Positions 19,318 to 26,800 of a stretch of 64,000 nt of DNA are shown in pieces. Numbering within the stretch: the stretch's first letter is position 1; each line of letters begins with the position of its first letter. The stretch is from a candidate division WOR-3 bacterium (GTDB lineage: Bacteria; Hydrothermota; Tepidihabitantia; Tepidihabitantales; Tepidihabitantaceae), in assembly GCA_039801085.1 (NCBI GenBank), contig JBDRTY010000002.1:193339-257338 (forward strand). The letters are read 5' to 3'. Both the position numbers and the translations under genes were made by a program. Below the pieces are notes generated by a model that saw nothing but the letters and a program-made list of their open reading frames with translations, was not told the origin of the DNA and did not search any database.

Positions 19318-19438
19318 CAGATGAGCATAAGTCAAACTTGAGCCCAAGTCAAGCCGTTGCGGAGGAAGGCGGTCGTGTCCCAATGAGATCGTATTGACTG
19401 AGCCCTAAAGCAGATTATCTTTGTTGTGGAGGTGCAAG

Positions 19439-22177
19439 GTGAAGCGACTGATTTTAGCTGTTATCTGGGTCAGCCTGACACTGGGTTCAACCCGGGCGTT
19501 ACCGGCGCGTGACAGGCGTCCGCCATTCCGTCCACGGCATCAGCTGAAACAAAGCGGTTTGAATTCAGTCCGGTTCTGGAAGGAGAAATGGTTTGCACAA
19601 AAGCCAAGCAGAGTAACATCAGTGGGGGCGGTTTACAGTCGGATCCGGAAATTTCAGCTCCAGGAATTTCCCTTTGATACCACGGTTGTCCTAGGCCCCG
19701 GTCCCGGGGAAGAGGATTTTGCCGATGTCGCCTTTGATGGTACAAACTTCTTTGTCGTCTGGATGGATTACGAGCAGGGAGAGATTTCGGGTGCCCGCAT
19801 CCGGCCTGACGGGGTGATGATCGACACGACGCCGATTCAGATATCATTCGGCTCCTGGGGCGGAGAGTATCCGGCAGTGGCATTTGACGGCGCAAATTAT
19901 CTGGTGGTCTGGACCGACTGGCGCAATTCTGATCCGGATATTTACGGTGCTCGGGTGACACCTCAGGGCCAGGTGCTGGACCCGGACGGGATTCCGATCT
20001 CCACCGCACCGGAGATGCAGACGTTACCAGCGGTGCTCTTTGACGGGACAAGGTACCTGGTTGCCTGGAGTGATTTGCGGAGTGGCAACTGGGAGTCGGA
20101 TATTTATGCGGCACGGGTGAGCACCGGTGGTGAGGTGCTGGACCCGGACGGAATTCCGGTTAATACTCAGCCCTATGACCAGATTATCTATCACGGTCTG
20201 GCGTTTGACGGCACCAATTACCTTTTTGTCTTTTCAGATGACCGGGATGGCGATCTGTATTACGATGTCTATGGTACCCGGATGAGCACCGACGGTGTGG
20301 TGCTGGACAGTTCGGGTTTTATTATTTCAGCGGAAAATAATGACCAGGCGTTGCCCCGGGTTGGATTTGACGGTACTAACTATCTTGTTGTCTGGTTTGA
20401 TGATCGGGAGGCGGTTGAGGATTACCGGGTTTACGGTGCGCGCATTCAGCCTGATGGCACAATTCTGGACCCGCAGGGTATCAGATTGAGTGATTATTTG
20501 AGTGTTTATCCGGCAGTGGCGTTTGACGGCACCAACTACCTTGTTACCTGGCTGGACTACCGTTCCGGCTGGCAGGCGGATATTTATGGAACCCGGGTGA
20601 GCACTGGTGGTGTGGTGCTGGACAGTGCCGGTATCCCGGTTTCGGCAGAGCCCGAATACGACCAGGTGCTGCCGGCGGTGGTTTTCGGCGGTGGCAGATA
20701 CCTTGCGGTCTGGTCTGATTTCCGGAATTATGAGGGACCGGACATCTACGGTGCGCGAGTTGATACAAGTGGTCAGGTGCTTGACCCGGATGGGGTTCTA
20801 ATTTCCTGGGGAATTATCAGTCCGACCCAGTATGCACCGGTGGCTGCCTTTGACGGCACCAATTATCTGGTGGTCTGGGAGGATTACCGGAACGGAGATG
20901 ATGGGGATATTTACGGTGCGCGGGTGACACCTCAGGGGCAGATTCTTGATCCCGAGGACATTCCGATCGCCACCGGCTGGCAGTATCAGTATTCACCGGC
21001 AATAGCCTTTGACGGAACCAACTTTCTTGTAGTCTGGGTTGATGAGCGGAACGGCTCTCAGGATATTTATGGGGCACGGGTGAGCACTAATGGTGAGGTG
21101 CTGGACCCGGACGGAATTCCGGTTGCAGTTGATGAGTATTACAAGTATCATCCCCAGTCGGGTTTCAACGGTGAAAATTATCTGGTGGTCTATGAGCTTC
21201 ACGACTGGGTCGAAGATAAGCATGACATCTATGGGGTGCGGGTGACACCGGATGGAAATGTGCTGGGAATGGAGGCAATTGCCGGTTTTGACGGCTGGCA
21301 GAGTTATCCTGCGGTTACTACCGGTGCTGAAACTCTGCTTGTTGTCTGGCAGGATGAACGGGATACAACCGGCAGTGCCGACATCTACGGTGCCCGCATT
21401 ACTTCCGATGGTGAGATACTGGATCCGGAGGGGATTCCAGTCAGCACTGCGGAAGATTATCAGTTATTTCCGGATGTGGTTTCCGGCAATGGTGGCTACT
21501 TTGTGGTGTGGACTGATAGCCGGAGCGGTAATTATGATGTTTACGCAGCCCGGGTGACCGCAGATGGCGATGTGCTGGATCCGGATGGTATTGCCATTTC
21601 CAGTAATGAGTATGATCAGTTCTATCCCCGGGTTGAGTATTACAGACCGTTCTGGTTGGTTGTCTGGCGTGATTACTACAATCAGGAAAACATGGATATC
21701 TTTGGTGCCCGGGTTGATTTGAATGGGCGGGTTCTGGACCCGCAGGGGATTGAGCTGATCAACCAGCCGTATGATCGCTACCTTTCCGATATTACAACCG
21801 GCTCGGGCCAGTTGCTGCTTACATTTGACGGCTATGTAGCGGATTATTTCACCAACAAGGCGCTGGGTGCGTTCTGGAATCCGGTTGGAGTTGCCGAAAG
21901 ACCGGAGGGCAGGTCCGCGCGGACTGAACTGCGCCTGCTCGGCAATCCGGTGCGCAATCGGCTGGAGCTGGAGGTGAAATTGCCTCAGACCGGACGGTTC
22001 CGGCTGGAACTGCTGGATGCTGCAGGCAGACAGGTGCGGGTGGTGCACACAGGTGAGCGGAATGCTGGCACGGCAAGAATGAATTTTGATCTCCGGGACC
22101 TGAATGCCGGTGTCTATTTTCTGAAACTGAGCGGTTCCGGGATAAAGTTAAGGCAGCGGTTTACACTGTTGAGGTAA
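19439..22177 (+). CDS. Giant secreted repeat protein (about 16 tandem about 55-aa blades) with T9SS C-terminal sorting domain
   Basis: The GTG start at 19439 has a GGAGG SD 6 nt upstream, followed by a signal peptide. The recurring unit is FDGTNYLVVW.D.R.G..DIYGARV...G.VLDP.GI.VS. The C-terminus (VYFLKLSGSGIKLRQRFTLLR) is a T9SS CTD. Confidence 0.75.
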   Translation: MKRLILAVIWVSLTLGSTRALPARDRRPPFRPRHQLKQSGLNSVRFWKEKWFAQKPSRVTSVGAVYSRIRKFQLQEFPFDTTVVLGPGPGEEDFADVAFDGTNFFVVWMDYEQGEISGARIRPDGVMIDTTPIQISFGSWGGEYPAVAFDGANYLVVWTDWRNSDPDIYGARVTPQGQVLDPDGIPISTAPEMQTLPAVLFDGTRYLVAWSDLRSGNWESDIYAARVSTGGEVLDPDGIPVNTQPYDQIIYHGLAFDGTNYLFVFSDDRDGDLYYDVYGTRMSTDGVVLDSSGFIISAENNDQALPRVGFDGTNYLVVWFDDREAVEDYRVYGARIQPDGTILDPQGIRLSDYLSVYPAVAFDGTNYLVTWLDYRSGWQADIYGTRVSTGGVVLDSAGIPVSAEPEYDQVLPAVVFGGGRYLAVWSDFRNYEGPDIYGARVDTSGQVLDPDGVLISWGIISPTQYAPVAAFDGTNYLVVWEDYRNGDDGDIYGARVTPQGQILDPEDIPIATGWQYQYSPAIAFDGTNFLVVWVDERNGSQDIYGARVSTNGEVLDPDGIPVAVDEYYKYHPQSGFNGENYLVVYELHDWVEDKHDIYGVRVTPDGNVLGMEAIAGFDGWQSYPAVTTGAETLLVVWQDERDTTGSADIYGARITSDGEILDPEGIPVSTAEDYQLFPDVVSGNGGYFVVWTDSRSGNYDVYAARVTADGDVLDPDGIAISSNEYDQFYPRVEYYRPFWLVVWRDYYNQENMDIFGARVDLNGRVLDPQGIELINQPYDRYLSDITTGSGQLLLTFDGYVADYFTNKALGAFWNPVGVAERPEGRSARTELRLLGNPVRNRLELEVKLPQTGRFRLELLDAAGRQVRVVHTGERNAGTARMNFDLRDLNAGVYFLKLSGSGIKLRQRFTLLR

Positions 22178-22791: not shown

Positions 22792-22912
22792 CGTGTAGGT
22801 TAGATTATCATACGCAATCTGAAGTTCAAGTCATGTCATATATAACACAATGAATTGACAAGACAAGAAGGGTAGATTATTATAAAATTAAAAATAAAAG
22901 GAGGTTTTAGCT

Positions 22913-23170
22913 GTGCCTAGGAAATCAGTTAAAAGTTTAGGGATAAACGCCAATCTCAGATGTCTTAAAGTTTATCCCTCAGCTCGTACTAAAAAGCAAA
23001 TTCAGGATCTTCAGACAATAGGTATTAAATTGTCTAGAGATCAAGCTTTTCATTTGGCAAAAGCACTTTTGGCTGCTAGCAAAGCATGGAATGAAATCGA
23101 CATTACTGTCTACAGGTTAGAGCCTAGACAGTCGGACGGGACATATCACGTAACAGTGACATCTAAATAA
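22913..23170 (+). CDS. Small hypothetical protein (85 aa), AT-rich
   Basis: An ORF with a GTG start is preceded by AAGGAGG. No domain is recognised. Confidence 0.4.
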   Translation: MPRKSVKSLGINANLRCLKVYPSARTKKQIQDLQTIGIKLSRDQAFHLAKALLAASKAWNEIDITVYRLEPRQSDGTYHVTVTSK

Positions 23171-23204
23171 TTATTATCTCAAGGAAACTGTTATTTTTTT
23201 TCTA

Positions 23205-23903
23205 GTGATGTGTAGTAATTATGTTAATTATGTATTTAATGATATTCAGTACTGTCTGGTACATCAGCTGATACTGGAGGATAATTTTACTGATGAGCGT
23301 GATATCAGGCTGGTTGCCGGTGGTGACGTGGCGTATGAGAAGAATGGAGAGAGACTGGTGGCTGCGGTTGTGGTCTTTGATCTGAGATTGTTTACGGTTG
23401 TGGAACAGGTGATTTGTGCGGGCAGGGCTGAATTTCCCTATGTTCCGGGATTTCTTTCCTTCCGTGAGGGTCCGGTCCTGCTGATGGCGATCAGGAGGTT
23501 AAAAACCGAGCCGGATGTTTTTCTCTTTGACGGTCAGGGGATCGCCCATCCACGGCGGCTGGGAATTGCGAGCCATCTTGGTGTCCTTCTTGACAGGCCG
23601 GCGATCGGCTGTGCCAAATCCCATCTTTTTGGATTTTATGAGGAGCCGGAAAGGCATAAAGGGGCGTTCAGTTTCATCCGGGACCGCGTGGGTAATGCGG
23701 TCGGGCTGGTTCTGCGGACAAAGGATAACACCCGGCCGGTCTTTGTCTCACCAGGACACAGAGTCAGCGTAAAGATGGCAGGCAAGATTATCCTGCGCTG
23801 TGTGAGCAAATACCGGATACCCGAACCGCTCCGCCAGGCGCACATCAGGGCGCGATCAACTGTCAAGGACTCAGTAGGTTGCATTAAAAATCCAGAAAAG
23901 TGA
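23205..23903 (+). CDS. nfi: Endonuclease V (deoxyinosine 3'-endonuclease)
   Basis: It carries DVAY, FPYVPGFLSFREGP, DGQGIAHPRRLGIASHLG and IGCAKS motifs, colinear with E. coli Nfi. Confidence 0.8.
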   Translation: MMCSNYVNYVFNDIQYCLVHQLILEDNFTDERDIRLVAGGDVAYEKNGERLVAAVVVFDLRLFTVVEQVICAGRAEFPYVPGFLSFREGPVLLMAIRRLKTEPDVFLFDGQGIAHPRRLGIASHLGVLLDRPAIGCAKSHLFGFYEEPERHKGAFSFIRDRVGNAVGLVLRTKDNTRPVFVSPGHRVSVKMAGKIILRCVSKYRIPEPLRQAHIRARSTVKDSVGCIKNPEK

Positions 23904-23939
23904 TTGACAGTGACCCGAAAGCTATTAGTATATTTTGGT

Positions 23940-25553
23940 ATGGCACATCCGGCAAATAAGAGGCAAGCGCAGAGATGTTCTATTTGTCAAAATACGGTTT
24001 ATAATGGACTGGGCAAGCACATCATTAATAATCACGGATATGAGTCATTCAAAAGGATAATATTAAAAGCAAGGACATCTGGGGCTTCAGATGCTGAATT
24101 AGGCCAGCGCTTCGGGATTAATTTGCGTCAGCTTGAAAAAATTATCCTCGAATCCTACGGGTTGAATATTTCCGGATTAGTGCAAGTACAAAAGTCGATA
24201 AAGTGCTTGGAACCTAAAGATTTTAAAGAGGAAACAACAACAGTTTGGAGTTTCAAACAGCGAGGAAATTGGGCAACACATAATGGTAAATACCGGGGTA
24301 ACTGGTCGCCTTATATACCGAGAAATGTAATCTTGAAATACTCAAAGCCGGGGGATTTGGTACTGGACTATTTTGCTGGGAGCGGAACGACAGCAGTTGA
24401 AGCTAAGCTTCTTGGCAGAAGATGTATAGCGATAGATATCAATCCGGCATGCGTTGCGCTTACTAAACAACACCTTGATTTCAGTCTACCTTCAAATTTG
24501 TTTTCTGACAAAATATCGGCTTTTGAGCCCGAGGTTCGAGCAGGTGATGCCAGAAATCTGGGCTGGATGTCTGACGAGAGCGTAGACCTTATTTGCGCTC
24601 ATCCTCCTTATGCGGGGATTATAAAGTATGGTTCGGACATCGATGGTGACCTATCAAACTTGGATATCGATGAATTTCTTTTAGAAATCGGGAAAGTTGC
24701 CCGGGAGAGCTACCGGGTGCTCAAGCCTGGTGGTAAATGTGCGATTTTAATTGGTGATACCAGAAGAAAAAAACACATTCTGCCGCTGGGATTTCAGACA
24801 ATCGATGTTTTCCAGAAAGCCGGATTCAGATTGAGGGAGCTGGTGATTAAGCGCCAGCACAACTGTAAAACTACCGGTTTCTGGTATGATAAGAGCGTGC
24901 AATATAATTTCCTGCTGTTGGCACATGAGTACTTGCCGATTTTCGAGAAAGTTCAGGGATCTTTTCCAGCAGTAATGCGAGAAGCCCGTTCAGCTGCTAT
25001 TTCCTCATATGACTGGACGCACAGAAAGTTCCCCGTTGCTAAAGTTAATGAACTTGAGGTCAGCACAGTATGGACTTTTCAGGAAAAAGTGTTGGAGGAG
25101 CAACTGAATGAAAATGTATTTAAGCGTTATGGGAAAGGTAAAGTCCGGCTGACTGTCTATATTAATCCTCTCCCTAGTAATTCCACCTTTTCGGAATTGA
25201 AGGTTAAGAAAAGTGCCGGGTTGCTGTTTATCAAGGCGAATTCACTCCAGCGACCTGAGTCCAGGGTAGAAGTTGAACAGTATATGAAAACGATAGAGGC
25301 GGTTGTTGATCAGCAATTACCGCATATAGCACCTGATGGTTATCTAGTTATTCAAGTGAAAGACGTCAGGGTTACGGGTTACATCGAACCAATGGCTAAA
25401 AACATCATTAGCTTACTTAAGAAAAATCAGCGATTGTGGTTAAAGGAAATTGTTATTGTTGTCGCTAGTAATCAAGACGAAACGAGTCCGAAATCTGATA
25501 GTGCAGAGCTTGAAATTGTGCACCAATACCTGCTGATATATGATGTAAAATAG
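23940..25553 (+). CDS. DNA methyltransferase (N4/N6 amino-MTase, PF01555-like) with permuted motif order, N-terminal C2H2-like/HTH extension and about 200-aa C-terminal domain
   Basis: Motif I is DLVLDYFAGSGTT (about aa 150). Motif IV is ICAHPPYAG (about aa 232), followed by RVLKPGGKC...W.D...........HE. A degenerate second TVWTF block lies at about aa 380. The N-terminus has CSIC-x10-H-x4-H. The start is ambiguous between the TTG at 23904 and the ATG at 23940. Confidence 0.75.
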   Translation: MAHPANKRQAQRCSICQNTVYNGLGKHIINNHGYESFKRIILKARTSGASDAELGQRFGINLRQLEKIILESYGLNISGLVQVQKSIKCLEPKDFKEETTTVWSFKQRGNWATHNGKYRGNWSPYIPRNVILKYSKPGDLVLDYFAGSGTTAVEAKLLGRRCIAIDINPACVALTKQHLDFSLPSNLFSDKISAFEPEVRAGDARNLGWMSDESVDLICAHPPYAGIIKYGSDIDGDLSNLDIDEFLLEIGKVARESYRVLKPGGKCAILIGDTRRKKHILPLGFQTIDVFQKAGFRLRELVIKRQHNCKTTGFWYDKSVQYNFLLLAHEYLPIFEKVQGSFPAVMREARSAAISSYDWTHRKFPVAKVNELEVSTVWTFQEKVLEEQLNENVFKRYGKGKVRLTVYINPLPSNSTFSELKVKKSAGLLFIKANSLQRPESRVEVEQYMKTIEAVVDQQLPHIAPDGYLVIQVKDVRVTGYIEPMAKNIISLLKKNQRLWLKEIVIVVASNQDETSPKSDSAELEIVHQYLLIYDVK

Positions 25554-25565
25554 AAGGAGGCGATA

Positions 25566-26150
25566 GTGATACATGAACCCAGAGTTGGCGATTTCTGGGG
25601 TAGAGGCCGTTTCCGGAAAAAGATTAGAGAAGTAATTACTCTTTCTAACGGTTGGTATCTGATTAAGACCGATGATTCAAAGTCAGAGCGAGATTTCAAG
25701 GTTAAAGTAATTTTTCAGGTTCAACCTTCAAGGTCGATGACTCCCAAACATGCCCACTTTGCGATTGACTTATATGGCAAAATTTGCGCCGATCAGAGTC
25801 GCGCAAGAAAACTCCTTGATGCGATAATTGAAGTATGGGCCGGCAAGGATGTAAGAGAAGTGATTACTAAATACCAACATGACTGTTACGGACTGCCTGG
25901 ATATCCCCTAGAATATGTCCTTCACGCACTGAACTGGATTTTAGAGCAGGAAGACTTGAATTTTACCGGACGCCCGGCAAGAAAACAGGAGGAGCTGGAC
26001 ATTATTTGTGAAAAGCAGGGAATTAATCTCCTTCCAAGCAGGAAAGGGAGTCACTTGGCGATTGCTTTGCTCTGTGATATTATGAATGGTACGCATCCGG
26101 TTGAGGCACTGCTTAAAGCTAATATCGATGTAGCTCCCCGACTGGCGTAA
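25566..26150 (+). CDS. Hypothetical protein (194 aa), co-operonic with the MTase
   Basis: It has a GTG start with an AAGGAGG SD, 12 nt after the MTase stop. A weak D..D-F-K (PD-(D/E)xK-like) pattern is not convincing. Confidence 0.5.
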   Translation: MIHEPRVGDFWGRGRFRKKIREVITLSNGWYLIKTDDSKSERDFKVKVIFQVQPSRSMTPKHAHFAIDLYGKICADQSRARKLLDAIIEVWAGKDVREVITKYQHDCYGLPGYPLEYVLHALNWILEQEDLNFTGRPARKQEELDIICEKQGINLLPSRKGSHLAIALLCDIMNGTHPVEALLKANIDVAPRLA

Positions 26151-26633
26151 ATGCTGAATATGCGGAGGTCCTGGCAGGAGAAATTAAGGAATAGTAAGGA
26201 TTTGCCTAAGGTGGTTGAAATTACGCCGAAGATGGCGGGAAAATGGGGGACAAAGCCGGGTGATACGGTAGTGATTCCGGCGCCGATTGAGGTTGATGAG
26301 ATTATGAGGATGGTGCCGAAAGGCAGGCTCATCACTATTAATCAGATTCGGGAAATTCTGGCAAAGAGGCATAAGGCAACCATCGGCTGTCCGATTACCA
26401 CCGGTATCTTTGCCGCTATTGCTGCCCGCGCGGCTGATGAGATGGCAAAAGAAGGCAAGCGGGATTTTACCCCTTACTGGCGGACACTGAAACAGGGAGG
26501 AGTGATTAACGAGAAATATCCGGGCGGAGCAGAGGCGCAAAAGAAATTCTTGGAAAATGAGGGGCATAAGGTGGTGAAGAAGGGCAGGAAATTTGCTGTA
26601 TTGGATTATGAGCAGAAATTGCTGCGGTTGTAG
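26151..26633 (+). CDS. MGMT/ATL-fold (O6-alkylguanine-DNA alkyltransferase-like DNA-binding domain) protein lacking the catalytic cysteine
   Basis: Its ATG is 1 nt after the previous stop. It aligns to the Ogt/Ada C-terminal domain: VPKGRLITINQIREIL matches IPCGQVMHYGQLAEQL; AARAAD matches AARAVG; TPYWRTL matches VPCHRVI (Cys becomes Tyr, His becomes Trp); KYPGG matches GYAGG; and KKFLENEGH matches KEWLLRHEG. Confidence 0.55.
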   Translation: MLNMRRSWQEKLRNSKDLPKVVEITPKMAGKWGTKPGDTVVIPAPIEVDEIMRMVPKGRLITINQIREILAKRHKATIGCPITTGIFAAIAARAADEMAKEGKRDFTPYWRTLKQGGVINEKYPGGAEAQKKFLENEGHKVVKKGRKFAVLDYEQKLLRL

Positions 26634-26800
26634 TAAGCGGCAAATCGGGGATCAAAGCGAAAAGACAGACGGGTGGTTTACGCTGGTTGACTAAACCCCT
26701 GTTTTCCTTGCAACCTTAGCGGATTTGAATTAGTCTATTTATTATAGATATAACATTTTGTTTTTCGAGGGTTGGATAATTTCTCAAAAAGGAGCAGACT

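Follow-up and report, generated by a model that had tools for sequence, protein, structure and literature searches.

AGT and ATL proteins have in common a winged-helix/HTH C-terminal domain fold. AGTs such as hAGT/MGMT (1EH6), E. coli Ogt and Ada-C (1SFE) and SsOGT (4ZYE) carry a nucleophilic cysteine in an I/V-P-C-H-R-V/I motif, a catalytic network that includes His146 and Glu172, and an N-terminal domain. ATLs, represented by Atl1 (3GVA, 3GX4), vpAtl (2KIF) and E. coli YbaZ, are compact proteins of ~100-130 aa without an N-terminal domain, and their acceptor cysteine is replaced, usually by Trp (PWHRV). Every AGT and ATL is described as keeping a Tyr and an Arg finger for base flipping (PMC10779285), and both kinds of protein are known as archaeal fusions with endonuclease V, AGT-EndoV and ATL-EndoV, the AGTendoV of Ferroplasma being one example (PMC10779285). 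Here we describe a divergent protein of this superfamily, ATL160, encoded next to a DNA methyltransferase gene in a 64,000-nucleotide stretch (the window) from a candidate division WOR-3 bacterium. Our analysis leads us to favor a model in which ATL160 is a resident gene, probably encoding a non-catalytic nucleic-acid or damaged-base binder of divergent MGMT/ATL type, and in which its adjacency to the methyltransferase is historical and not functional.

The ATL160 gene lies at 26151-26633 on the forward strand, as do all the features given below, and encodes 160 aa; homologues, hhalign, AF2 and Foldseek all indicate that this ORF, first called in an earlier note on this DNA, is genuine. Its ATG directly adjoins the TAA stop of the preceding gene, p194, and M4 (26160) is a possible alternative start. 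The MGMT/ATL fold proposed by the earlier note was borne out by Pfam, hhalign and AF2 with Foldseek, whose best matches include 3GVA and 2KIF. Pfam PF01035 (DNA_binding_1) matches residues 47-138 over model positions 5-80 of 81 with E=3e-4, although its 21 bits lie below the gathering threshold of 27 bits, and a precomputed PF01035 match exists for roughly half of the close homologues. Comparison of the ATL160 family with typed ATL/AGT sequences by hhalign yields a probability of 92% (E=5.5e-7). The AF2 model (pLDDT 93.9, pTM 0.87) gives Foldseek matches in the PDB of which the best 34 are all ATL/AGT proteins, at a probability of about 1.0 and with TMt values reaching 0.75; S. pombe Atl1 is on top (3gva, E=8e-5; 3gx4, TMt 0.75, rmsd 3.0), and 2kif and Ogt/Ada/hAGT are also among the 34. 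Alignments with AGTs (probability about 1.0, TM about 0.4) span ~95-105 columns and cover the C-domain only, and ATL160 has no AGT-type N-terminal domain. When the PDB was searched by sequence, neither ATL160 alone nor the profile of its family gave a significant match (E=0.5-0.7 for 2kif and 3gva), so it is structure prediction that establishes the fold; by sequence, no solved structure of a subfamily member was found in the PDB. Judged by these profiles and models, ATL160 is a protein of the MGMT/ATL DNA-binding domain fold that lacks the canonical acceptor cysteine.

Conservation in 33 close homologues and 80 diverse representatives defines what remains of the AGT/ATL active site. By HMMER and hhalign, the counterpart of PCHR/PWHR is T107-P108-Y109-W110-R111 (26469-26483), which lines up with PWHR in Atl1 and PWFR in 2kif and confirms the replacement of PCHR by PYWR noted earlier. 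P108, W110 and R111 are kept in 94%, 97% and 96% of the 80 representatives; position 109 is Y in 70%, W in 16% and F in 9%, and a single representative has Cys there. An aromatic residue at the acceptor position is a feature that ATL160 shares with ATLs, as are the Arg of P-x-x-R and the L..E-G helix, whereas the His of the ATL motif PWHR has become Trp. K122-Y123-P124-G125-G126 (26514-26528), identified by inspection and hhalign, parallels together with N120 the N-Y-S-G-G active-site loop of AGTs; this AGT-like Y-P-G-G loop is missing from ATLs. The C-terminal helix Q130...L134..E137-G138-H139 (26538-26567; HMMER and hhalign) places E137-G138-H139 on E172-G173-H174 of hAGT. KYPGG and QKKFLENEGH are not only present in ATL160, as had been observed, but conserved family-wide, at 84-91% for the former and at 95% (L134), 91% (E137) and 89% (G138) of the 80 representatives for the latter. 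The elements that form the pocket survive in the family as P-[Y/W/F]-W-R, the K-[Y/F]-P-G-G loop and the L..EG(H) helix. Compared with AGTs, however, Cys145 and His146 are both missing: W110 stands at the His position and, although E137 provides the Glu counterpart, the catalytic network is gone. Since Tyr114, Arg128 and the AGT N-terminal domain are absent as well, ATL160 cannot be a canonical suicide alkyltransferase.

The residues that flip bases set the family apart from ATLs too. Where hAGT and Atl1 have their base-flipping Tyr (Y114 and Y25, respectively), ATL160 has I63 (26337-26339); HMMER aligns the ATL160 segment "litinei" with "VSTYGEI" of 2kif, hhalign concurs, and the 80 representatives have I, V, T or L at this position and never Tyr. 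For the Arg finger (Atl1 R39, hAGT R128), hhalign points to R93 within A91-A92-R93-A94 (26421-26432). The earlier note had listed this AARA helix as preserved, which is true of ATL160 itself but not of the family: position 93 is mostly E (28%), H (21%) or N (15%) and is R in about 9% of the 80 representatives. In an alternative register, the invariant G85 takes the Arg-finger position instead. With both the conserved Tyr and the Arg finger (PMC10779285) missing family-wide, the designation of ATL160 as an ATL does not hold in the strict sense.

Two further elements distinguish ATL160 from ATLs, with which it otherwise shares the character of a small single-domain protein. The first is a family-specific insertion of 16 residues in the HTH, at about residues 72-90 (26364-26420), supported by hhalign, AF2 and conservation; in the hhalign comparison with ATL/AGT, two gaps of 8 residues fall here, the segment C80-P81-x-T83-T84-G85-I86-F87 within it is near-invariant, and the AF2 model has a single long helix at 81-100. 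The second is an N-terminal extension of 44 aa (residues 1-44; 26151-26282), missing from canonical ATLs, for which the AF2 model gives a helix (8-13), a strand (20-23), a helix (26-32) and a strand (39-42), with W8, K11, L12, P19, T39 and P43 conserved in close homologues. The family is strongly basic (median pI 9.8, net charge +9.5), and by HMMER the similarity of ATL160 to solved ATLs is below significance. The protein had been described as having no Cys, which proved incorrect: C80 (codon 26388-26390), the sole cysteine, caps the long recognition helix at its N-terminus together with P81 (26388-26393). C80-P81 is invariant in the 33 close homologues, and C80 is kept in 89% of the 80 diverse representatives, the substitutes being D, E, S, G and L; nine of the 80 lack C80 and keep P-[Y/F]-W-R.

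ATL160 belongs to a large family, with 7695 homologues in the database and members in at least 589 species-level genomes, and its bacterial and archaeal members are 60-74% identical. Database labels read "MGMT family protein" or "alkylated DNA nucleotide flippase Atl1"; no publication on the subfamily turned up in our literature searches, and ATL160, like p194 and p85, has no match in NCBIfam, PADLOC or PHROGs. In a search for partners, we clustered all ORFs of 80 loci and Pfam-scanned the neighbours at +/-1 and +/-2 genes. No conserved operon partner emerged in the 80 loci, only clade-restricted synteny: with HAD, GIY-YIG and radical SAM genes in Bathyarchaeia, where a small GIY-YIG nuclease lies directly upstream of the homologue in about nine loci, and with an SBF transporter in Thermococci and Methanofastidiosum. 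Metabolic genes of varied kinds make up most neighbourhoods. Distant family members include fusions, namely a tandem duplication and fusions to DUF1963 and DUF1801, which offer no lead on function. Viral occurrence is rare (11 loci in 2.9 million viral contigs), and BFVD holds a single giant-virus MGMT-domain match.

The genes upstream of ATL160 in the window form a co-directional cluster. It begins with p85 (22913-23170), a small protein whose homologues lead R-M or defence-type clusters and which, among the WOR-3 loci compared, is found only in this lineage; a sigma-70-like site (TTGACA-17-TATTAT, 11/12) precedes it at 22855-22883. Endonuclease V (nfi; 23205-23903) is identified by PF04493 (E=3e-72) and by the NCBIfam deoxyribonuclease V model (240.8 bits, cut-off 230). 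The methyltransferase (MTase; 23904-25553, 549 aa) is a type II-like N6/N4 DNA methyltransferase (PF01555, E=1e-32) with an extra region of about 200 aa at its C-terminus and a PADLOC MTase_II match of 314 bits over residues 96-349. p194 (25566-26150, 194 aa) is an uncharacterised conserved partner of the MTase with 425 homologues, which in the contexts read always lie directly after a PF01555 MTase; its AF2 model (pLDDT 92.3) combines a beta N-domain with a helical bundle. A candidate internal promoter lies inside the p194 gene, at 26055-26083.

The earlier note had placed a Cys-less ATL in this operon as a functional part of it, reading the methyl mark written by the MTase or sensing phage modifications. 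Several features are consistent with such an arrangement: the TAA|ATG junction between p194 and ATL160, which is also kept in sister lineage L089, the common strand with a possible shared promoter at 22855-22883, and the variable nuclease- or MTase-type genes that flank ATL160 in WOR-3. The physical adjacency is therefore real in this lineage, but the association is not conserved. Homologues of the MTase, p194 or EndoV were found within 6 kb of an ATL160 homologue in none of the 80 other genomes, and the Pfam families that recur in 290 flanking genes do not include PF01555, whose co-occurrence the earlier note had proposed to survey. The order MarC (reverse strand)...ATL160...MoxR is kept in sister lineages L082-84 (91% identity) and L085/86 (87% identity), where the genes directly upstream of ATL160 are unrelated and the MTase is missing from the slot. 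Conversely, the MTase and p194 occur as a pair with overlapping stop and start, without ATL160, in a distant bacterium and in Caldarchaeum. In sister lineage L089-91, three independent assemblies show ATL160 frameshifted by the loss of 2 bp next to an intact MTase and p194, which indicates that the pair does not depend on ATL160. ATL160 lacks any PADLOC or PHROG match that would tie it to anti-phage defence or phage families, and viral contigs very rarely carry it. The homologues thus stand isolated in ordinary neighbourhoods and have a conserved Cys elsewhere in the alignment, which is largely what the earlier note had said would speak against its reading. Comparative genomics has largely refuted that reading, and we regard it as very improbable; on co-occurrence and co-inheritance, ATL160 is not a component of an R-M-like MTase module.

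The same comparisons suggest how the adjacency arose. The divergence of ATL160 parallels that of MarC and MoxR, and the MTase and p194 have a GC content of 41-45% against 55-60% in the flanks. We envision a scenario in which ATL160 is a vertically inherited chromosomal gene of a large, uncharacterised AGT/ATL subfamily, and in which a low-GC mobile cassette of MTase and p194 inserted exactly upstream of it before this lineage split from one of its sister lineages; the site would lie in a variable hotspot bounded by MarC and the MoxR/Bat operon. ATL160 would then stand beside the MTase because the cassette landed there.

What ATL160 does must be judged from its fold and residues, and here we favor a model in which it binds nucleic acid through its basic surface and its modified, elongated recognition helix and accommodates an altered or extrahelical base, with no chemistry, in the aromatic pocket of Y109/W110, perhaps acting as a damage or structure sensor that passes the site to other repair factors; the base would be reached in another way than in AGTs and ATLs. 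EndoV, which shares a co-directional cluster with ATL160 in three of four WOR-3 lineages (sister loci L085 and L089 also have it), the GIY-YIG genes of Bathyarchaeia and the known AGT/ATL-EndoV fusions hint at a DNA-repair context. As in those fusions, an MGMT-fold protein is genetically linked with endonuclease V in WOR-3, but here ATL160 and EndoV are separate genes with others in between, and their proximity may be due to chance. Neither the EndoV link nor the GIY-YIG link extends beyond a single clade. The absence of the AGT/ATL base-flipping residues counts against the binder model we favor, and a purely non-catalytic model does not explain the conservation of C80 (89-100%). In addition, the HTH insertion sits at the site where AGTs and ATLs contact the DNA minor groove, and so the known DNA-binding mode, or even DNA as the ligand, may not apply. 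A canonical ATL, which like Atl1 or YbaZ flips O6-alkylguanine from duplex DNA and recruits nucleotide excision repair (UvrA/UvrC), is implied by the database labels and would fit the top structural matches, Atl1 in apo and DNA-bound form and vpAtl, as well as the aromatic Y, W or F in place of the acceptor Cys, with the Trp typical of ATLs in 16%. We nevertheless consider it unlikely: the required Tyr and Arg finger (PMC10779285) have given way to I/V/T/L at position 63 and E/H/N at position 93, the motif His is Trp, the HTH insertion and N-terminal extension have no place in an ATL, the PF01035 score is below threshold and the similarity to solved ATLs is non-significant.

There is also a rather small chance that the MGMT-like pocket serves a ligand unrelated to DNA damage, be it RNA or tRNA, a free base or nucleotide, or some other small aromatic compound. 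The high conservation between Bacteria and Archaea would then reflect a universal ligand, and the mostly metabolic neighbours without a conserved repair partner, the loss of the residues that flip bases from duplex DNA, and fusions to DUF1963 and DUF1801 and not to repair domains all accord with this idea; the basic surface and retained HTH-like architecture, by contrast, suit nucleic acid, EndoV and GIY-YIG are neighbours in two clades, and nothing positive points to any specific alternative ligand. C80 raises other options. A cysteine at a helix N-terminus next to Pro has a lowered thiol pKa, and C80, which the AF2 model places in exactly this setting, is the sole cysteine and lies inside the most conserved, family-specific insertion, as might be expected if C80-P81 were a relocated reactive thiolate that had become an alkyl acceptor or that senses redox state or electrophiles. 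We find this improbable, given that nine of the 80 representatives dispense with C80 and keep P-[Y/F]-W-R and that no activating His or Glu partner for C80 was found; moreover, the substitutes D, E, S and G are typical helix N-cap residues, indicating a structural role. Also a long shot is a functionally new branch of the AGT/ATL superfamily that has discarded Tyr/Arg flipping in favor of a C80-P81-x-T-T-G-I-F center at the tip of the elongated recognition helix and is paired with stand-alone nucleases. In such a branch, the center could be a relocated reactive cysteine, serving as alkyl acceptor or electrophile sensor, or a new nucleic-acid probe, and the lesion sensor would work with EndoV in WOR-3 and with GIY-YIG in Bathyarchaeia, in anaerobic Bacteria and Archaea.

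Under the resident-gene model, the link between ATL160 and the MTase is an accident of gene insertion, and the locus would therefore not contain a new epigenetic "reader-writer" pair. Because the residues that define AGT/ATL base flipping are missing from the family, the labels "Atl1 flippase" and "MGMT family protein" probably over-predict function. Biochemistry on one family member would either widen the range of substrates and mechanisms of AGTs and ATLs or correct thousands of annotations. The MTase and p194 are of interest in their own right as a conserved two-gene module. Like type II R-M and orphan PF01555 modules, the MTase matches PADLOC MTase_II and travels with a fixed partner; unlike in type II R-M modules, that partner does not resemble known restriction enzymes, and its confidently predicted structure has no PDB fold match, so the two are not a recognisable R-M pair. 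p194 as a restriction endonuclease completing such a pair, which we considered, is unsupported by this model. We also rejected p85 as the true partner of ATL160, since it belongs to a rare family that heads R-M or defence-type clusters and occurs elsewhere without ATL160; in a Dehalococcoidaceae contig, a p85 homologue lies 26 nt downstream of ATL160.

Our results support the assignment of the 160-residue protein encoded at 26151-26633 (+), here called ATL160, to the MGMT/ATL fold, as the earlier note had claimed. Residues 47-138 match Pfam PF01035 across nearly the whole model, at a score below the threshold of 27 (E=3e-4, 21 bits), and the first meaningful matches of the family profile among PDB sequences are the alkyltransferase-like proteins (ATLs) 2kif and 3gva, which are not significant (E=0.5-0.7). 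When the 33-sequence family alignment was compared by hhalign with ATL and O6-alkylguanine-DNA alkyltransferase (AGT) sequences (Atl1, YbaZ, hAGT, Ogt and Ada-C), the match had 92% probability (E=5.5e-7, 94 columns). The AlphaFold2 model of ATL160 is confident (pLDDT 93.9, pTM 0.87), and in a Foldseek search of the PDB it returned ATL/AGT structures at all places from 1 to 34. Atl1 ranks first (3gva, E=8e-5; the DNA-bound form 3gx4 superposes with TMt 0.75 and rmsd 3.0 Å over 117 columns), followed by vpAtl (2kif), SsOGT, Ada-C, hAGT and MtOGT. Sequence profile and predicted structure thus both identify ATL160 as an MGMT/ATL-fold protein.

ATL160 adds one member to a family to which databases already give homology-based names, "MGMT family protein" at NCBI and "alkylated DNA nucleotide flippase Atl1" at JGI. 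A homologue search gave 7695 matches, of which the best 120, none below 64% identity, belong to WOR-3, Thermodesulfobacteriota, Bacillota, Dictyoglomaceae, Caldisericota, Zixibacteria, Aerophobetes and Thermoplasmatales. An exhaustive search of representatives found 1875 clusters at E<=1e-3 and 1000 at E<=1e-10, and at least 589 species encode a homologue in GTDB contigs (one genome per species). In the GTDB species listed the homologues are 56-74% identical to the window protein; many of these species are Bathyarchaeia, and the others include Thermococci, Archaeoglobus, Methanocella, Methanofastidiosum, Chloroflexota/Dehalococcoidia, Ignavibacteria and Planctomycetota. Viral contigs hardly ever contain a homologue (11 loci in 2.9 million), and ATL160 matched no PADLOC or PHROG model. 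Sequence and literature searches found neither a solved structure of the subfamily nor a paper on it; it is remarkably conserved in both prokaryotic domains, yet without any characterised member. Rare fusions occur in distant family members: the domain is duplicated in tandem in P0160 (first copy PFWR) and joined to DUF1963 in P0191 and to a weak DUF1801 match in P0256. One representative has a Cys at the canonical position (PCWR).

This subfamily is distinct from the described ATLs. The motifs named in the earlier note are all present: T-P-Y-W-R at residues 107-111, aligned with PWHR/PWFR/PCHR, K-Y-P-G-G at 122-126 and Q..L..E-G-H at 130-139. The Y-P-G-G loop is AGT-like and the E-G-H of the C-terminal helix is also kept, whereas PYWR stands in place of the PWHR of ATLs. 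AGTs and ATLs conserve a helix-turn-helix (HTH) with an Arg finger and a Tyr, and ATLs lack the N-terminal domain and usually have Trp in place of the Cys (Tessmer and Margison 2023, PMC10779285). In ATL160 the position of the flipping Tyr (hAGT Y114, Atl1 Y25) is occupied by I63, and throughout the family it is I, V, T or L, never Tyr. The AARA helix had been described as preserved, and hhalign does place R93 at the Arg-finger position; across the family, however, this residue is E, H or N, with R in only about 9%, so the Arg is no family feature. Compared with both ATLs and AGTs, the HTH of the family is some 16 residues longer (two 8-residue gaps in hhalign), and this Cys-Pro-containing insertion holds the family's most conserved block, C80-P81-x-T83-T84-G85-I86-F87. 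There is also a conserved 44-residue N-terminal extension (helix-strand-helix-strand). Without the flipping Tyr or a conserved Arg finger, and with this extension, ATL160 fails several defining ATL features despite the common fold.

Nor is the protein cysteine-less, as had been stated. Its only Cys, C80, lies within ATIGCPITTGIF, and is invariant across 33 homologues (64-91% identity); among 80 representatives (36-62% identity) 89% have it, and the remainder have D, E, S, G or L. Since these substitutes are typical helix N-cap residues and a 20-residue helix begins at P81 in the model, position 80 may plausibly serve a structural role, which would leave the preference for Cys unexplained.

ATL160 lies downstream of four ORFs on the same strand: p85 (85 aa, 22913-23170), endonuclease V (EndoV, 23205-23903), a 549-residue PF01555 DNA methyltransferase (MTase, 23904-25553) and, directly 5', p194 (194 aa, 25566-26150), whose TAA directly adjoins the ATG of ATL160. 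The region's best sigma-70-like match precedes p85 (22855-22883), and the locus is bounded upstream by a divergent MarC and downstream by a MoxR/DUF58/BatA-D operon. The NCBI names of homologues assign the contig to candidate division WOR-3. ATL160 had been taken to be embedded in an MTase operon and translationally coupled to it. Five independent lines of sequence evidence argue that it is not part of one. No homologue of MTase, p194 or EndoV was found by tblastn within +/-6 kb of the ATL160 homologue in 80 genome loci, and PF01555 is not among the recurrent families in a Pfam scan of 290 neighbouring ORFs (150 nearest, 140 second-nearest), the co-occurrence that the earlier note had proposed to survey. 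The commonest neighbour families (HAD 13, radical SAM 12, GIY-YIG 9, SBF 6) reflect synteny inside single clades, and the tightly linked co-directional neighbours, identified by reading sequences, are heterogeneous (transporters, DUF3795, pantothenate/NAD genes, LeuD, MsrA, Maf, QueH-like and others).

Sister WOR-3 lineages supply two further lines. ATL160 occupies the same MarC-MoxR slot with different neighbours in L082-84 (91% identical, between a 216- and a 272-residue protein) and in L085/86 (87% identical, after EndoV and a 323-residue protein with weak PD-(D/E)XK matches). It has diverged in step with MarC and MoxR, which together with the constant slot indicates a resident, vertically inherited gene in a variable hotspot. 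A third lineage, L089-91, has the order EndoV, MTase (78% identical), p194 (85%), ATL160, and its p194 and ATL160 meet at a TAA|ATG junction as in the window. Here the ATL160 orthologue (L089:6586-7063; also L090 and L091) has lost 2 bp (CAGGGAGGAGTG to CAGG--GGGGTG), with a frameshift at about codon 117; three assemblies of different sources (ENA, NCBI, Logan) show the identical deletion, and MTase and p194 are intact. Because codons downstream of the frameshift are still conserved, this copy looks like a recent pseudogene.

The fifth line comes from a distant bacterium (L092) and Caldarchaeum (L094/95), where ATL160 is missing and p194 comes immediately after a PF01555 MTase whose stop overlaps the p194 start; the bacterial pair sits between acpS and a carbohydrate kinase/tuf-rpl cluster. 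MTase and p194 (window 23904-26150 (+); L089-L095) are a conserved two-gene module of their own. Their GC content in the window is 41-45%, against 55-60% in the flanks and an intermediate 47-51% in ATL160. The absent linkage elsewhere, the resident slot, the separate module and the frameshift beside an intact pair point to a cassette inserted precisely upstream of a pre-existing ATL160. The proposed translational coupling is a by-product of that insertion rather than a functional link.

What ATL160 does can be framed more tentatively. The family retains pocket-type motifs (P-[Y/W/F]-W-R, K-[Y/F]-P-G-G, E-G-H), is basic in charge, has lost the catalytic Cys/His and the Tyr/Arg flipping residues, and has gained a new conserved block inserted at the N-terminus of the recognition helix. 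We envision a non-catalytic nucleic-acid binder that would accommodate an extrahelical or altered base in its aromatic pocket, reached by a mode of access different from that of AGTs and ATLs. EndoV accompanies ATL160 in a co-directional cluster in three of the four WOR-3 lineages, and in about nine Bathyarchaeia loci (L017, L022, L029, L042, L046, L049, L052, L057, L066) a small stand-alone GIY-YIG protein (82-99 aa), a possible nuclease partner that appears confined to this one archaeal clade, is encoded on the same strand 30-100 nt upstream. With the AGT-EndoV and ATL-EndoV fusions known in archaea (PMC10779285), these neighbours faintly hint at a role in repair. Because both associations are clade-restricted, we regard the identity of ATL160 and its non-association with the MTase as probably correct, and the mechanism as a possibility that may well prove wrong.

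The alternatives appear less probable. A canonical ATL would suit the fold and the Atl1 label, and is unlikely given the missing flipping residues. A ligand other than DNA is similarly unlikely: ATL160 is strongly basic (pI 10.0, net +14; family median pI 9.8), which fits a nucleic-acid ligand. The conservation of C80 could reflect a relocated reactive Cys, which its replacement by N-cap residues makes improbable. That ATL160 reads the mark of the neighbouring MTase, as the earlier note had suggested, has the slightest chance of all, and we conclude that this reader-writer link is not real.

In WOR-3 genomes the MarC (-) to MoxR/Bat interval (window 22800-26800; L082-L091) forms a variable hotspot, holding, by lineage, p85, MTase and p194, the 323-residue protein, or 272-, 335- and 216-residue proteins that carry no functional label; ATL160, and usually EndoV, stay put while the other genes vary. 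p194 has 425 homologues (55-85% identity), all "hypothetical", and no match in Pfam, NCBIfam, PADLOC or PHROG; its confident model (pLDDT 92.3), a beta N-domain and a 7-helix bundle, found no fold match in the PDB (best E=0.15). About 200 residues at the MTase C-terminus (24950-25553, residues about 350-549) lie outside the PF01555/PADLOC MTase_II match, and are present in the bacterial homologues L089 and L092 and absent from the 319-325-residue Caldarchaeum versions. p85, of very low GC (34-39%) in the window, comes from a rare 22-member family (loci include L064:808-1077 and L096-L102). It heads an operon with a PF01555 MTase, a 354-residue protein and RE_MjaI in L101/102; in L098 it is surrounded by SIR2, NYN and TIR genes, and in L099 PemK, an nSTAND NTPase and transposases are close by. 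It could act as a small regulator of mobile restriction-modification or defence cassettes. Nearby, a highly repetitive secreted protein of 918 residues (19421-22177 (+); repeats FDGTNYLVVW...YGARV), whose sister-locus homologues have a Por_Secre_tail match, and a complete MoxR-DUF58-BatA/B-TPR-BatD aerotolerance-type operon (26801 to about 31700 (+)) have a host-like GC of 55-62%.
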